DNA of 56,715 nt from a virus. Lineage: Duplodnaviria; Heunggongvirae; Uroviricota; Caudoviricetes. How positions within the stretch are numbered: position 1 is the stretch's first letter; each line of letters opens with the position of its first letter. The stretch lies in the IMG/VR virus record IMGVR_UViG_2622736468_000005; one strand, given 5' to 3'. The position numbers and the translations under genes were made by a program. Below, piece after piece: positions 1,971 through 52,184 of the stretch. The notes under the pieces are model-generated. The model had not been told where the DNA came from and did not search any database. It saw only the letters and a list, made by a program, of their open reading frames with translations.

Positions 1971-2187
1971 ACCGCAGCACGTTCTTGCTTAAGACGTGCT
2001 GCGGCATAATCCCAATGATTACTCCCTGACAGGGTTCGTAGGCCACTCAATATCAGGTGCAGTTGATGTATCAACACGGTTCAGCAACACCCGATACTTT
2101 TTCCAGGCTTCCAGCAATGAGGTTTCTTCCTCCGTTGCGATTTCCAGATCTACAGCATCCTGAAGTGGCGCAATATGCTCACTGGCT
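1971..2187. repeat. direct repeat copy 2 (3' end of intact tfa plus terminator hairpin)
   Basis: Matches 920..1135; perfect hairpin ccgcagcacg(ttcttgcttaaga)cgtgctgcgg immediately after tfa stop. Confidence 0.8.
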
Positions 2188-2603
2188 ACCTGCATCAGGC
2201 TGTTTTTTGTTTCTTCCGCCTCCCGGATCCGGAACAGTTTTTCTGCTTCCGTATCCTTCACCCAGGCTGTGCCGTTCCACTTCTGAAACTCCCCTTCCGG
2301 GGATAACCAGGTAACATTTTCCGGTAACGGACCGAGTTCAGAAATAAATAACGCGTCGCCGGAAGCCACGTCATAAACCGTTTTACCCCGATGATCTTCA
2401 ACGAGATGCCACGATGACTCATCACTGTTGAAAACGGCCACAAAGCCAGCCGGAATATCTGGCGGTGCAATATCGGTACTGTTTGCTGGCAGACCTGTAT
2501 GAGGCGGAATATATGCGTCACCTTCACCAATAAACTCATTGGTTCCAGCCAGTAGATTATAAATTTTTATGGTCCGTGATTGTTCACTCATTCTGAATAC
2601 CAT
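2019..2603 (-). CDS. tfa: tail fibre assembly protein (lambda Tfa-like chaperone)
   Basis: 194-aa ORF directly downstream of stf with overlapping start/stop (2603); position and size as in lambda stf-tfa. Confidence 0.8.
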
Positions 2604-11577: not shown

Positions 11578-12275
11578 TTACTGCGAAAGTTTGTTAATGG
11601 AAAGGAAACCGCCAAAATTAGCCACCATGCCGCGCATCTCACACCCGCGCATGCACTTGCTGCATCTGTCCTTACGGATATCCGTGGTGGGGTTGTCGAA
11701 CTCATCCGCCACCGCAGGACCGTTATACCCGCATTCATCTCCCCGGTAATCCCACATACAGGTGTTCGCCAGCATGATGCGACCAGGAAACAGCGCCCCG
11801 TCCGTCTCGGTCGGTGTCGCCAGCACAAACGAGGCCGTCATGGCCGTCAGCTCTGACATCTGCTCCACCACCCAGCGGTCGCTCAGCTCCTGCTCCGGGT
11901 CTGCCTCCGGATTGCCCGCAACGAAATTCACCGCATCCAGAAAACGCCCATACACCCGACGGCGGACCACCGTGGCCCCACCAGACTCTGCAGGTCTTCC
12001 GCCATCCCGGTGACCAGACCGAACAGATTGGACACCGTCAGCAACGGTCTGGCACTGCTGCCCTTCCCGCTCATCTGAAAACCGCTGCCGTCAATCGGGT
12101 ATGCCTGATATTGCCGCCCCTGCCAGGTGACCGGCTCCCCTTTTTCATTCAGCTCATTACAGAAAAAATACCGCTCACCGCCCTGCACCGTCAGGTCAAT
12201 TTCCCAGAGCACCACCCGCGGTGACTGCTCTGATTTAACCGACTCGTTCAGACTTTCTTCGTGGATCTCCTGCAT
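11578..12275 (-). pseudogene. L: tail tip protein L, interrupted by a 1-bp frameshift (track ORFs 11928..12275 and 11578..11970)
   Basis: N-terminal ORF matches lambda gpL up to ...GMAEDLQSLVG, C-terminal ORF matches the rest (VRRRVYGRFLDAVNF...FGGFLSINKLSQ); frames differ by one base at a C4 run at 11976..11979. Confidence 0.8.
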
Positions 12276-12284
12276 AAACTTCCA

Positions 12285-12473
12285 CCCATAAAAAAGGGGC
12301 GCAATGCGCCCCGAACAAAAAAGTTCAATTAAAAATCGAAAGCAATGAAGGTAATAAAATGAAAATTAAATCGGCTAATTGCCGTTTGCAGTGACCGGTG
12401 AAAACTATACTTTCACCGATACAGACCATCTGTGAGGGCAGATGGTCTGTATTTGTTCACTCACCAGTTATCA
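12285..12473 (-). ncRNA. candidate 3'UTR-derived sRNA (IpeX-like) downstream of prophage porin gene
   Basis: About 190-nt untranslated segment after porin stop containing a 12-bp perfect hairpin (acagaccatctg...cagatggtctgt) and ending in a strong intrinsic terminator (ggggcgca-ttg-cgcccc + T-run). Confidence 0.3.
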
Positions 12474-13610
12474 TCAGAACTGATAAGTCATACCAACGGC
12501 AACGATATTATCCGTTGCAACACCTGCATCCTGGGTAAACTGACTTTCATCAATCAGATTGATTTTATAATCAACATAGGTGGACATATTTTTATTAAAA
12601 TAATATGTTGTACCCACATCAATATATTTAACCAGATCCTGATTGCCATAGTTTTTACCACCGACAATTATATCCTGAGCACGAGACTGCAGGAACGCCA
12701 GAGATGGACGCAAACCGAAATCAAACTGATACTGTAATACCGCTTCAAAGTTCTGGGCTTTATCTGCCACCCCTTTGTCGCCAAAGGTCGTCATATTCTG
12801 AGTCTCAGAATATATTGTCGCCAGATAAATGTTGTTGGCATCATATTTAAGCCCGGTGCCCCACATCTCAGCGTGTTTACCTTTTGCAACACTGCCGGAA
12901 TCAACAACTGTTTGAGTACCGTTTACTGTTTGCGTACCATTCAGGCCTTTCACCTGATTGTTGGTACGGTCTGCGTTAGTATATGCAGCCACGATACCAA
13001 AACCTTCATATTCATAACTGGCAGAGAAACCATAACCATCACCATTAGCTTCCTGAAGGTCATCACGTTCATTCTTGCCCTGATACTGAGCTGCAAAATT
13101 CAGGCCATCAACAAGTCCAAAGAAATCAGTATTACGGTAAGTCGCCACACCAGAAGTACGGGCAGTCATGAAGTTATCGGTCTGAGTCCAGCCATCACCA
13201 CCAAACTCTGGTAATACGTCGGTATAAGCACCAACATCATACGCAATACCATAGTTACGACCATAATCAATGCTGCCAAAGTCACCGAACTTCAGACCTG
13301 CAAACGCCAGACGAGTCTTATTACCCGCAGCACCGTCTGATTCAGTTTTATTACCAGAGAACTGATATTCCCACTGACCAAAACCGGTCAGTTGATCATT
13401 AATCTGAGTTTCACCTTTAAAGCCCAGACGTGCATATGTCCGATCACCATCATTTCCCTTATCGCTGGAGAAATAATGCAGTGCCGTTACACGTCCATAC
13501 AGATCAAGCTTATTGCTATCTTTGTTATATACTTCCGCAGCCTGCGCACCAGCTGCAAAAATCACAGCCGCAGCCACGGCTGAAAGTGCCACTGTCATTT
13601 TTTTCATCAT
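12474..13610 (-). CDS. general bacterial porin of the OmpC/OmpF/PhoE family (prophage moron)
   Basis: 378-aa ORF with signal peptide ([12 protein letters not shown]), porin signature stretches ([23 protein letters not shown]-terminal ...VAVGMTYQF); AT-rich flanks; inserted between tail genes L and M. Confidence 0.85.
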
Positions 13611-13699
13611 TTGTTCCTTATTTTAATTGAACTATTCATGAATTGGGCTGTCATGAACGCCAGTTAAAATATTTTACTACAAATTCTGAATTCAATTCA

Positions 13700-13735
13700 T
13701 TAAATGCAACAAAATGTAAACAAGAGACAAGTTTC
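13700..13735 (-). promoter_or_regulatory. putative OmpR-binding box in porin promoter region
   Basis: Minus-strand sequence TGAAACTTGTCTCTTGTTTACATTTTGTTGCATTT resembles OmpR sites of ompC/ompF (GTTTACATTTTG, TGAAAC). Confidence 0.35.
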
Positions 13736-13812
13736 ACACTTTCTGTTAAGACGACAAAAAATAATTTTGCATGAAACAATAAAGATTAATTTATAATACA
13801 ATTCTTGGAAAT

Positions 13813-14154
13813 CTATGAGATTACCTGCTCAATCGTGCAACTGAAATCACTGTACCGGGCATTATCCGTGACACTCCACTCACGGCACACAACCCTCACC
13901 GTTCGGTTATGTTTCGGCGGTCGCCACAAAAAGGCACGGTAACCACCATGCCACGATAAAAACTCTTCCAGCCATCGCCGGGTCGCCTCATCCGTCACCC
14001 GGAACACCGCCTGAAACGTCTTCAGTCGGGCATTAAGTCCCGTCGGGCGGCGCTGTTCATAACCGTCACCAAACCGTACCCTCGCCACCGACGGTTTCTC
14101 ACTCACCTGCATCCCTTCACGCGGGACCAGATGCAGCGTTTTTATCTCAGCCAC
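13813..14154 (-). CDS. M: minor tail protein M
   Basis: 113-aa ORF with VRFGDGYEQR...GLNA motif as in lambda gpM; position between H and L. Confidence 0.8.
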   Translation of the reverse strand: MAEIKTLHLVPREGMQVSEKPSVARVRFGDGYEQRRPTGLNARLKTFQAVFRVTDEATRRWLEEFLSWHGGYRAFLWRPPKHNRTVRVVCREWSVTDNARYSDFSCTIEQVIS

Positions 14155-33883: not shown

Positions 33884-33918
33884 GCAGTTTACTCACATCT
33901 GACAAAATCAATATAAAC

Positions 33919-34140
33919 AGCCCCTCCGGAGAGGGGCTGGAGAGTGGCGCTATGTGCCATTGCATGGTGCCGGGTGCCTCCCGGTGAATTCAGTACCAGC
34001 ACCTGAATCCGCGATTATCCCATATACCTACTCGCTGATTACCCCTCCGCACAGGGGGATTCACCATGCGAAATTTTTTAACAAACTTCCCGCCGGCCAG
34101 ACAATAATCGCCAGCCTGAATTATGAGCAACGTGGCATTT
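33919..34140. repeat. repeat element copy A (~220 bp) beginning with perfect 20-bp palindrome agcccctccggagaggggct
   Basis: Shares palindrome and several conserved blocks (gcatggtgcc..cctcccggt.aattcag, gggggattcaccatgcga, ttttaacaaa, cagacaat) with copy B; compensatory changes in stems. Confidence 0.55.
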
Positions 34141-34381
34141 TACGGGAAAACTGTTTTCTGCAGTAAAAAGGCCCGCCGGAGCGAGCCTGGAAGGATAGCG
34201 GTCATGTGATGCCGGTTTCCCGGTAACTCAGCATCGGTATCTGAGTCAACGTTTTCTCTACTGGGTCATTTCCGATACGTTCCGCCTTCCGGCAGACTTT
34301 CATCACGTCAGAAAATATAGCACCCTGAGTAACAGGACAGTACTCAGAATTCAGGAAACTGTGACACATCCTGCACAGAAA

Positions 34382-34600
34382 AGCCCCTCCGGAGAGGGGC
34401 TGAAGTATAGCCTAATTTCTGTCTGTCGCATGGTGCCAGGGGCCTCCCGGTAAATTCAGCCTGTCTACTGAATTTGCATGTTCTCTGGATCATACACTTT
34501 GCCAGATGCCCCGCCGCTGAGGGGGATTCACCATGCGATGTAATTTTTAACAAATTCTCCGGCAGCCAGACAATCATCAAGCTGTGGAATTGTGAGGTAT
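34382..34600. repeat. repeat element copy B (paralog of 33919..34140)
   Basis: Same palindrome and conserved blocks; hairpin aaattcag-cctgtcta-ctgaattt. Confidence 0.55.
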
Positions 34601-34829: not shown

Positions 34830-34906
34830 TGGACCGCCATCGGGGACTTGAACCCCGCGCAGCCAGCTTCGAAGGCTGGCGCTCTATCCCGATGAGCTAA
34901 TGGCGG
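34830..34906 (-). tRNA. tRNA-Arg (anticodon read as TCG)
   Basis: 77-nt cloverleaf on minus strand: acceptor CCGCCAT/ATGGCGG, D-arm GCTCATCGGGATAGAGC, anticodon loop CTTCGAA, T-arm CGGGGTTCAAGTCCCCG, 3' TCCA. Confidence 0.7.
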
Positions 34907-34913
34907 TATGTGA

Positions 34914-34989
34914 TGGTGGCCCTTGCTGGATTTGAACCAGCGACCTGGCGATTATGAGTCGCTCGCTCTCACCACTGAGCTAAAGGGCC
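34914..34989 (-). tRNA. tRNA-Ile2 (anticodon CAT, ileX/ileZ-like) or tRNA-Met
   Basis: 76-nt minus-strand sequence GGCCCTTTAGCTCAGTGGTGAGAGCGAGCGACTCATAATCGCCAGGTCGCTGGTTCAAATCCAGCAAGGGCCACCA; 7-bp acceptor stem, CTCATAA loop. Confidence 0.8.
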
Positions 34990-38132: not shown

Positions 38133-38459
38133 ATGACTAAAAATACTCGTTTTTCCCCCGAAGTCCGTCAACGGGCAGTCCGTATGGTTCTGGAAAGTCA
38201 GAGCGAATATGACTCACAATGGGCGACAATTTGTTCCATTGCTCCAAAGATTGGCTGTACGCCGGAGACTCTGCGTGTCTGGGTTCGCCAGCATGAGCGG
38301 GATACCGGGGGCGGTGATGGAGGGCTCACCACCGCTGAACGTCAGCGTCTGAAAGAGCTGGAGCGTGAAAATCGTGAACTGCGCCGCAGTAACGATATCC
38401 TTCGCCAGGCTTCCGCTTATTTTGCGAAGGCGGAGTTCGACCGCCTCTGGAAAAAATGA
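38133..38459 (+). CDS. IS629 transposase OrfA (HTH)
   Basis: 108-aa [25 protein letters not shown]...; slippery A AAA AAT at its end. Confidence 0.85.
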
Positions 38460-39346
38460 TGCCACTGCTGGATAAGCTGCGTGAGCAGTACGGGGTCGGA
38501 CCGCTATGCAGCGAACTGCATATTGCCCCGTCAACGTATTACCACTGTCAGCAACAGCGACATCATCCGGATAAACGCAGTGCCCGTGCGCAGCGCGATG
38601 ACTGGCTGAAGAAAGAGATACAGCGCGTATACGATGAAAATCACAAGGTATACGGTGTGCGTAAAGTCTGGCGTCAGTTGTTACGGGAAGGTATCAGAGT
38701 GGCCAGATGCACTGTGGCACGTCTCATGGCGGTTATGGGACTTGCCGGTGTTCTCCGGGGTAAAAAGGTCCGTACGACCATCAGCCGGAAAGCCGTTGCC
38801 GCAGGCGACCGCGTAAACCGTCAGTTCGTGGCAGAACGACCTGACCAGCTGTGGGTGGCTGATTTTACTTACGTCAGCACATGGCAGGGCTTCGTCTATG
38901 TGGCGTTCATCATTGATGTGTTTGCCGGATACATCGTGGGGTGGCGGGTCTCATCGTCCATGGAAACGACATTCGTGCTGGATGCACTGGAGCAGGCGTT
39001 ATGGGCCCGTCGACCGTCCGGCACGGTCCATCACAGTGATAAAGGTTCTCAGTATGTATCGCTGGCCTACACACAGCGGCTTAAGGAAGCCGGATTACTG
39101 GCATCAACAGGAAGTACAGGCGACTCGTATGACAACGCGATGGCGGAGAGCATCAATGGTCTTTACAAAGCGGAGGTAATACACCGTAAGAGCTGGAAAA
39201 ACCGTGCAGAAGTGGAACTGGCCACACTCACGTGGGTGGACTGGTATAACAATCGACGATTGCTGGAAAGGCTGGGCCATACTCCTCCGGCAGAAGCAGA
39301 AAAAGCTTATTATGCTTCCATCGGAAACGATGATCTGGCAGCCTGA
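38456..39346 (+). CDS. IS629 transposase OrfB (DDE integrase domain)
   Basis: 296-aa ORF overlapping orfA in -1 frame; DDE-type catalytic core. Confidence 0.85.
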
Positions 39347-42791: not shown

Positions 42792-42947
42792 TTACTCCTC
42801 AGGTTCGTAAGCTGTGAAGACAGCGACCTCCGTCTGGCCGGTTCGGATTCGTACCTCGCAGAGGTCTTTCCTCGTTACCAGTGCCGTCACAATGACGGTT
42901 AAACAGATGACGATCAGGGCGATTAGCATCGCCTTTTGCTGCTTCAT
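42792..42947 (-). CDS. hokD: Hok/Gef-family small membrane toxin (HokD/RelF-like)
   Basis: 51-aa ORF MKQQKAMLIALIVICLTVIVTALVTRKDLCEVRIRTGQTEVAVFTAYEPEE with AAGGAG RBS; track ORF 42792..43004 carries an in-frame N-terminal extension. Confidence 0.8.
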   Translation of the reverse strand: MKQQKAMLIALIVICLTVIVTALVTRKDLCEVRIRTGQTEVAVFTAYEPEE

Positions 42948-43238
42948 AGCCTGCTTCTCCTTGCCTTTCGGCACGTAAGAGGCTAACCTACGTGTGTAGA
43001 GCATAGATATGGCCTCAGATTAATGTTAAGCGTCTTGCCGGACGCGTAATGTTAACTGGGGCTTTTCTCTATCTGCCTTTTGGTGTTCATGCCTGAGACA
43101 GATAGCCTCAAGCACCCGCTGCAATTCTACTTAACTCTCCTTTTCCCGCAAACCGTTTTTATCCCCAGCGGCAAATCGAATACACCACCAGCGCCACCGC
43201 CATCGCAATTCCTACCGTTGTTAATGCTTCAGGCCAGG

Positions 43239-52126: not shown

Positions 52127-52184
52127 TTTCTGGTGACGTTTGGCGGTATCAGTTTTACTCCGTGACTGCTCTGCCGCCCTTTTT
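52127..52184 (+). ncRNA. dicF: DicF small RNA (cell-division-inhibitor sRNA)
   Basis: Sequence tttctggtgacgtttggcggtatcagttttactccgtgactgctctgccgccc + T-run matches DicF as I recall it; immediately upstream of dicB. Confidence 0.6.

Follow-up and report, generated by a model that had tools for sequence, protein, structure and literature searches.

The closest described counterpart of the locus reported here is IpeX, an RNA from the 3' untranslated region (3'UTR) of the porin genes nmpC (cryptic prophage DLP12) and lc (phage PA-2). IpeX reportedly is made within the porin transcript and represses OmpC and OmpF (PMC12197685, PMC5069750, PMC8065619). We analyzed a stretch of 56,715 nt from a caudovirus (IMG/VR record IMGVR_UViG_2622736468_000005; hereafter, the window means this whole stretch), in which the interval 12285-13812 carries a porin gene on the minus strand, with the tail genes M and L on either side. 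The porin gene is followed by a long, structured 3'UTR. We conclude that this cassette is a separate lineage of the NmpC/Lc-IpeX porin-plus-RNA module, present at a new site, the M/L junction. No description of a porin at this junction was found in the literature. The interpretation that we favor, with some reservation, is that the cassette is a lysogenic-conversion moron whose porin replaces those of the host, and whose IpeX-like 3'UTR RNA pairs with the host ompC and ompF mRNAs.

The porin 3'UTR (12290-12473) comprises 184 nt between the stop (UGA UGA UAA, with the stop codon at 12474-12476) and the end of the terminator. Its predicted fold has an energy of -64.8 kcal/mol (z = -6.4 relative to shuffled sequences). 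Three hairpins come first, then an unpaired AU-rich linker, and then the terminator:

12419-12452, minus strand: hairpin 1, a perfect 14-bp stem (arms 12419-12432 and 12439-12452) with a 6-nt loop; three compensatory pairs.
12396-12418, minus strand: hairpin 2, with a stem of about 9-10 bp; four compensatory pairs.
12372-12384, minus strand: hairpin 3, short in the window allele and up to 12 bp in others; one compensatory pair.
12313-12371, minus strand: AU-rich linker of ~59 nt, the predicted regulatory seed; unpaired in the minimum free energy and centroid folds.
12290-12312, minus strand: rho-independent terminator, GGGGCGC-AUU-GCGCCCC followed by U6; seven G-C pairs and the loop AUU.

A first-pass annotation made from the sequence had reported a perfect hairpin of 12 bp and a strong intrinsic terminator in this region. 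The perfect hairpin is present, but it is 14 bp long; the terminator, with its seven G-C pairs and U6, is as described. In an alignment of eleven distinct variants of the 3'UTR, the paired positions form standard pairs in 99.3% of cells and eight pairs show compensatory double changes. When the partners are slid by one to three columns, pairing falls to 35-46%. The terminator stem is invariant in all 11 variants, as is the core of the linker (UUAUUACCUU at 12348-12357), and most positions flanking this core are invariant too. Between alleles, the 3'UTR differs at 13-24% of positions, compared with 40-58% at synonymous sites of the adjacent porin gene. Covariation is confined to the hairpins, and the linker shows conservation alone. 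Given the covariation and the largely invariant linker, we conclude that the RNA is conserved as structure and, in the linker, as sequence. The chromosomal OmpD-like relatives of the porin gene have just a 20-45-nt terminator after the stop codon, and the long structured 3'UTR is a trait of phage-borne porin genes. We identified no separate minus-strand promoter close to where the porin coding sequence ends. A possible RNase E site (cleavage between GA and UUU) follows hairpin 3.

The similarity of this region to IpeX, also suggested in the first-pass annotation, is not apparent from plain sequence comparison. A MAFFT alignment of the window 3'UTR with K-12 ipeX was essentially random and unconvincing, and BLASTN of the 3'UTR against deposited phages returned nothing. 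An Rfam scan found no family at threshold in the porin 3'UTR region; as the K-12 ipeX region has no Rfam match either, IpeX is not represented in Rfam. A covariance model (R1), built solely from the eleven window-type 3'UTRs, does find ipeX specifically. R1 matches the K-12 ipeX at 38.1 bits (E about 1e-6; E-values are from a rough calibration), and scores 39.1 bits on that of E. albertii and 34-35 bits on four other nmpC loci. All of these matches begin ~5-8 nt before the stop codon of nmpC. No match at E <= 0.1 was found in 78 other porin loci (548 kb in total). The relationship must be distant, because plain alignment and BLAST fail to detect it. Nevertheless, the model matches, along with a seed complementary to ompC and ompF that both RNAs share, indicate that the window 3'UTR belongs, distantly, to the IpeX kind. 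One other R1 match in the window (29582-29777, minus strand, in the lysis-gene area; 19.5 bits, E 0.02) contains CCCUUUUUUAUGGGU, as does the porin terminator region, and is probably due to chance.

The 3'UTR has outstanding complementarity to ompC and ompF. We scored pairing as compact duplexes, in windows of 24 x 24 nt, between the linkers and 149 K-12 translation initiation regions (TIRs; -45 to +20). The TIRs are those of 143 genes from three 50-kb chunks, ompA from one chunk, and five other porin genes. This compact score was adopted because RNAduplex, when applied to long sequences, gave meaningless long-range "duplexes". As positive controls, MicF placed ompF, and MicC placed ompC, at rank 1. 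With the linker of the window allele, the top-ranked of the 149 TIRs is that of ompC (-19.9 kcal/mol); here 12346-12368 pairs to ompC -12 to +12 at 21 of 23 positions, in a duplex that spans the Shine-Dalgarno (SD) sequence and the AUG. ompF is rank 3 of 149 (-18.3 kcal/mol), and here linker positions 12344-12363 cover the SD sequence. For four other alleles and for K-12 IpeX, ompC and ompF occupy ranks 1 and 2. The observed energy was reached by none of 250 dinucleotide-shuffled window linkers for ompC and by 1 of 250 for ompF; for the STEC1585 allele the count was 0 of 250 for both. The K-12 IpeX forms a 15-bp duplex with ompC (rank 1 of 149, -20.6 kcal/mol), in which AACCUUCUGUUAUAU pairs with AUAUAACAGAGGGUU at ompC -20 to -6, and its UAUUACCCUU pairs with the ompF SD sequence in a 10-bp duplex. 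Of 5426 E. coli genomes, 5346 carry the ompC target region at 99% identity or more.

When reverse-complemented, the whole linker can be aligned to the ompC leader over roughly -44 to +12. Thus, the linker looks like an antisense copy of a porin leader, which is the logic classically proposed for micF. The Rfam MicF model (RF00033) gives a weak, end-to-end match to 12287-12373 (26.6 bits, E 0.37; the gathering score is 79), because UUUAUUACCUUCAUU resembles the MicF seed UUUAUUACCGUCAUU. We rejected membership of the MicF family, given this score and the location of the RNA in a 3'UTR. The linker (12319-12357) is also complementary to the 5'UTR and start of the porin gene itself (13598-13636; 39 nt at 72%, with a perfect 13-bp core). 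This pairing is unremarkable against the TIR background (rank 7-42) and is not allele-specific. We regard it as a by-product of the origin of the linker from an antisense leader, although self-regulation or mRNA circularization is possible. More tentatively than for the cassette as a whole, we propose that the phage porin 3'UTR RNAs generally (IpeX and the M/L-junction lineage) are antisense copies of porin leaders, and that they may silence host ompC and ompF by direct pairing.

Some of these features could also be explained if the 3'UTR functioned in cis only, stabilizing the porin mRNA and insulating the cassette from the tail operon, with the complementarity to ompC and ompF an inert relic (an inverted scrap of porin leader). 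It is in the hairpins that covariation occurs, the linker being conserved only, and any moron needs a strong terminator. Moreover, the whole linker resembles a degenerate antisense porin leader, part of which matches the 5'UTR of the cassette itself, as expected of a duplication relic. Such a relic would decay, yet UUAUUACCUU and its flanks are invariant while neighboring synonymous sites differ by 40-58%, and both allele groups and IpeX keep ompC and ompF top-ranked despite their differing sequences. The chromosomal relatives do with a 20-45-nt terminator alone, and IpeX, the relative that was detected, reportedly acts in trans from a plasmid. We consider a function solely in cis unlikely.

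Less probable again is that the RNA lowers host porin levels indirectly, by titration of Hfq or another factor, or by way of envelope stress from porin overproduction. Simple titration needs no conserved specific seed, and shuffled linkers almost never reach the observed energies. The AU-rich linker and U-tail could suit an Hfq ligand, and reviews ascribe to IpeX an Hfq-independent effect on ompC, with no complementarity to it. The complementarity does exist, both in K-12 (15 bp between IpeX and ompC, -20.6 kcal/mol) and in the window RNA (21 of 23 positions). Direct pairing with ompC and ompF is the mechanism that we prefer.

The cassette encodes a complete porin. The relevant features are:

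12474-13610, minus strand: porin coding sequence; 378 amino acids (aa) from the first ATG, 377 aa from the ATG at 13607.
12906-12941, minus strand: in-frame duplication of NGTQTV; alignment to OmpF places it in the surface loop equivalent to L5.

The second ATG (13607, giving 377 aa) is the start annotated in other alleles and relatives. The first-pass assignment to the OmpC/OmpF/PhoE family, with a signal peptide, is correct. The protein matches Pfam Porin_1 (PF00267) over its full length (474.6 bits, profile positions 1-337 of 337), and residues 25-378 align with solved chains of OmpC, OmpK36/37, PhoE and OmpF. Alignment with K-12 porins shows a signal peptide ending in AQA (before AE), the PEFGGD motif of the L3 constriction loop, and a C-terminal YQF. 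Identity is 74% to K-12 NmpC and 63-64% to OmpC, OmpF, PhoE and OmpN. The porin is therefore not truncated on alignment, and the product is predicted to be a general bacterial porin forming a trimeric, 16-strand outer-membrane channel. A cluster look-up by exact sequence with the 377-aa porin gave no match.

The porin open reading frame (ORF) is intact in every allele. Pairwise ratios of nonsynonymous to synonymous divergence (dN/dS) among five alleles are 0.06-0.17, with synonymous divergence of up to 0.64, values that indicate strong purifying selection. Variation is concentrated in the L5-equivalent loop, which is hypervariable among alleles (we take the L5 numbering from the textbook topology of OmpF). 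The in-frame tandem duplication noted earlier in a surface loop is present and lies in this loop, although the two 18-nt DNA copies are only 14/18 identical, every difference being synonymous, and Tandem Repeats Finder calls no repeat there.

We found 92 of 5426 complete E. coli genomes matching at least 80% of the whole cassette. The 3'UTR is carried by 111 of the 5426 (about 2%), as at least five alleles (100, 87, 79, 76 and 75% identity), and the gene order is M-porin-L in every E. coli locus inspected. Among IMG/VR viruses there are 30 loci with a porin 83-100% identical to that of the window, all with this same order. A DNA pattern for seed plus terminator occurs in 32 IMG/VR contigs, namely those 30 and two more, in both of which L follows. 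The cassette occurs in none of 50,697 deposited phage genomes; the best porin in the phage records is 71.9% identical and of NmpC/OmpD type. In a search of one genome per GTDB species, the nearest relatives of the porin are E. coli and E. albertii nmpC (71-72%), followed by chromosomal OmpD-like porins of Enterobacter, Citrobacter, Lelliottia and Salmonella (66-70%). The comparison with NmpC, Lc and OmpD that had been suggested earlier therefore places NmpC closest (74%), ahead of the chromosomal OmpD-like porins (66-70%). The nmpC gene of K-12 itself is inactivated by IS5.

The genes flanking the cassette are:

13813-14154, minus strand: tail gene M, 113 aa (Pfam Phage_min_tail, 100.4 bits), directly before the insertion along the path of late transcription.
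11578-12275, minus strand: tail gene L (Pfam Phage_tail_L on both halves), downstream of the insertion.

The placement of the porin gene between tail genes L and M, as first reported, is borne out. The M and L flanks adjoin without an insert in 128 deposited genomes of lambdoid and Shiga toxin (Stx) phages, and in BP-4795 the two genes overlap, with TGATG containing the stop of M and the start of L. The junction comparison shows an insert of ~1.53 kb within the last codons of M, with the GGUGGA SD sequence of L kept at the right edge. The GC content of the insert is 36-45%, versus 55-61% for the tail genes. The cassette is co-oriented with the tail operon and has an intrinsic terminator at its end. 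Extra DNA between genes that adjoin in related phages, with deviant GC content and its own terminator, is the anatomy of a phage moron. M is annotated as "phage tail protein" in near-identical E. coli genomes. In the window, L consists of two overlapping ORFs, because it lacks 1 nt near 11977 that is present in the intact gene of NZ_CP042892.1; this frameshift reflects either a defective prophage or a read error. L is intact in near-identical prophages.

In a related prophage of E. coli SCU-106, a second accessory block lies between tail genes L and K. It encodes an Ant antirepressor, a YlcI/YnfO family protein, an Arc-family protein and a ClpP-like protease. The stretch of the tail operon around L accepts several insertions.

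It is very improbable that a decaying prophage simply carries the cassette along as inert DNA, with porin and RNA unexpressed or irrelevant to host or phage: L is frameshifted in the window, K-12 nmpC is inactivated by IS5 and no promoter exceeds the consensus-scan threshold, but the porin ORF is intact in every allele (dN/dS 0.06-0.17 at a synonymous difference, pS, of up to 0.64), near-identical prophages have an intact L, 111 genomes and 30 or more viral contigs retain the module with its RNA structure conserved, and an NmpC-type porin is among the genes expressed from a prophage in LF82 lysogens (PMC9928086).

Control of the cassette by the host was considered from the region upstream of the porin gene:

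13611-13812, minus strand: AT-rich upstream region of the porin gene, presumed to contain the promoter and 5'UTR; six-allele alignment.
13701-13720, minus strand: OmpR-box-like element TTTACATTTTGTTGCATTTA, recognized by its likeness to ompC C1.

Conserved blocks among the six alleles are TTTACATTTTG, ATTGAA, AATATTTT, GTTCATGACA and TGAATAGTTCA, the best conserved being TTTACATTTTG(A/T)(A/T)(A/G)CA. The motifs GTTTACATTTTG and TGAAAC, described earlier as resembling OmpR boxes, are both present. The window version of the box, TTTACATTTTGTTGCAT (13704-13720, minus strand), is a 17-nt match to the K-12 ompC C1 box TTTACATTTTGAAACAT. It occurs only once in the 56.7 kb and is matched in 0 of 100 shuffles, so the resemblance originally noticed holds at this site. 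The core of the box is identical to the K-12 ompC C1 site TTTACATTTTGAAACATCTA and similar to ompF F1. In K-12, the region upstream of ompC reads CTTGCATTTACATTTTGAAACATCTA, which we take to be OmpR box C1. The box core of the SCU-106 allele (TTTACATTTTGAAACA) is identical to the ompC C1 core. In STEC1585-type alleles the core is TTTACATTTTGTTACA, and the five bases upstream of it (in CTTGCA) are also common with ompC. Given this identity of box cores, the resemblance to an OmpR box is real, and it probably reflects homology with the ompC promoter. The 20-mers downstream of the box are weak matches, and the upstream sequence allows two candidate -35/-10 pairs, TTGAAT-18-TATTTT or ATGACA-17-TTCAAT. 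The conserved upstream blocks suggest that the cassette may have its own promoter, possibly under OmpR control.

From these observations, we can outline how the cassette might function. A self-contained unit (promoter, porin gene, regulatory 3'UTR and terminator) would have entered the last codons of M in a lambdoid E. coli prophage. In the lysogen, it would probably be transcribed from its own promoter, with an ompC-C1-type OmpR box, and transcription would stop at the terminator before L. During lytic growth, late transcription modified by Q would read through the cassette terminator, an expectation based on the antitermination by Q in lambdoid phages. Translation of the mRNA would yield an NmpC/Lc-type general porin, and the three hairpins would likely stabilize the 3' end of the message. 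The AU-rich antisense segment would pair, presumably with the aid of Hfq, with the SD and start regions of the host ompC and ompF mRNAs. It may do so as part of the intact transcript; alternatively, RNase E may first cut immediately 3' of hairpin 3, freeing a MicF-shaped RNA of ~80-85 nt (a 5' seed and then a terminator). This pairing would block translation of the host porins, and the prophage porin would take over. Likely benefits are exclusion of phages and colicins that depend on OmpC or OmpF, and altered permeability.

Several observations weigh against this interpretation. For IpeX, reviews state that it acts without base pairing and has no complementarity to its targets (PMC3617542, PMC10690425). 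The seed is AU-rich and resembles an anti-SD sequence, so some pairing to any TIR is expected, and the best non-porin TIRs are within 1-3 kcal/mol of ompF. The background for pairing was 149 TIRs rather than a whole genome, with a score that does not include target accessibility, and the allele groups do not form the ompC duplex in the same register. As the linker pairs perfectly over 13 bp with the 5'UTR of the porin gene itself, discrimination between self and host would not be absolute. On the side of expression, the upstream region has one convincing OmpR-like site only, compared with three or four for ompC and ompF, and no sigma-70 match above the scan threshold was found there on the minus strand. 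The U-tail of the terminator in the window allele is only six U, and the prophage itself may be defective, its tail gene L being frameshifted in the window.

Elsewhere in the window, we identified other RNA features:

2062-2260, minus strand: IS009, a full-length Rfam match (229 bits).
33909-34097, 34373-34566, 34833-34906 and 34917-34989, all minus strand: a cluster of two copies of the small RNA (sRNA) STnc100 and two tRNA genes.
38414-38530, plus strand: ALIL pseudoknot, the frameshift signal of IS3-family transposases.
42942-43117, minus strand: sok antitoxin RNA, of a hok/sok-type toxin-antitoxin system.
52128-52179, plus strand: DicF sRNA gene.

The STnc100/tRNA cluster is probably in the Q/late-promoter region of the prophage, and the ALIL pseudoknot indicates an insertion sequence inside the prophage. 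Apart from the porin 3'UTR, the prophage has several regulatory RNAs.

Many antibiotics, colicins and phages enter cells through porins, and the cassette could alter the outer-membrane composition of the strains that carry it. Standard annotation would hide such an effect, because the Prokaryotic Genome Annotation Pipeline (PGAP) calls the gene "porin OmpC". The divergent second lineage permits the first comparative analysis of IpeX, and it points to a conserved seed directed at the ribosome-binding sites of ompC and ompF. This suggests a simple base-pairing mechanism for an RNA whose action has been called unclear for twenty years. If direct silencing of ompC and ompF is true of these RNAs, the often-made claim that IpeX lacks complementarity to its targets would be overturned. 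There would also be a general device by which a phage replaces the porins of its host with its own, one transcript providing both the replacement protein and the RNA that removes its competitors. In addition, the cassette illustrates cleanly how a moron can have a second functional payload in its 3'UTR.

Like IpeX, the window RNA fills the stretch from the stop codon of an NmpC-type porin gene carried by a phage to the rho-independent terminator of that gene. Both have three hairpins, an AU-rich single strand with UAUUACC, and a terminator of the GGGG(G)CG type, and the seed of IpeX is also top-ranked against ompC and ompF. The window lineage differs in having an extra ~35 nt between seed and terminator. 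The duplexes predicted with ompC are also different, the window allele pairing with the SD sequence and AUG (-12 to +12) and IpeX with -20 to -6. The window cassette is located in the tail operon and is co-oriented with it, whereas the DLP12-type module lies between Q and the lysis genes in the opposite orientation. All 50 of the 50 DLP12-type loci have quuD and essD flanking nmpC on the opposite strand, and all 30 of the 30 window-type loci are between M and L on the same strand. At the level of the protein, the NmpC, Lc and OmpD porins are the closest relatives, with a similar signal peptide and similar barrel motifs. However, the window lineage is 83-100% identical internally and, apart from the 74% to K-12 NmpC, at most 72% identical to anything else in these comparisons. 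It has its own hypervariable L5 loop, and the cassette has a different seed and an ompC-type OmpR box.

Among other systems, the cassette resembles the lambdoid morons (lom and bor of lambda, and those of HK97/HK022) in being an inserted gene for an outer-membrane protein presumed to benefit the lysogen, with its own terminator, a presumed promoter of its own and deviant GC content. Unlike these, it has a second payload, at the RNA level, in the 3'UTR. The predicted trans-antisense logic against porin TIRs is that of MicF and MicC. The window RNA has UUUAUUACC(U/G)UCAUU of the MicF seed, followed by a terminator, and the C-type alleles and IpeX are predicted to overlap the MicC site on ompC. 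It differs from MicF in its score (26.6 bits, far under the gathering score of 79), and from both RNAs in its location, which is the 3'UTR of a prophage porin gene rather than a gene of its own, divergently oriented beside ompC or ompN. It differs also in its predicted targets, which include both ompC and ompF. Finally, the window RNA is similar to the Hfq sRNAs that derive from 3'UTRs (the CpxQ, SroC, DapZ and MicL type) in its predicted biogenesis and in having its seed just 5' of the terminator of the mRNA itself. The distinction is that the mRNA giving rise to the RNA is here a paralogue of the targets; a porin mRNA would thus suppress its own competitors.

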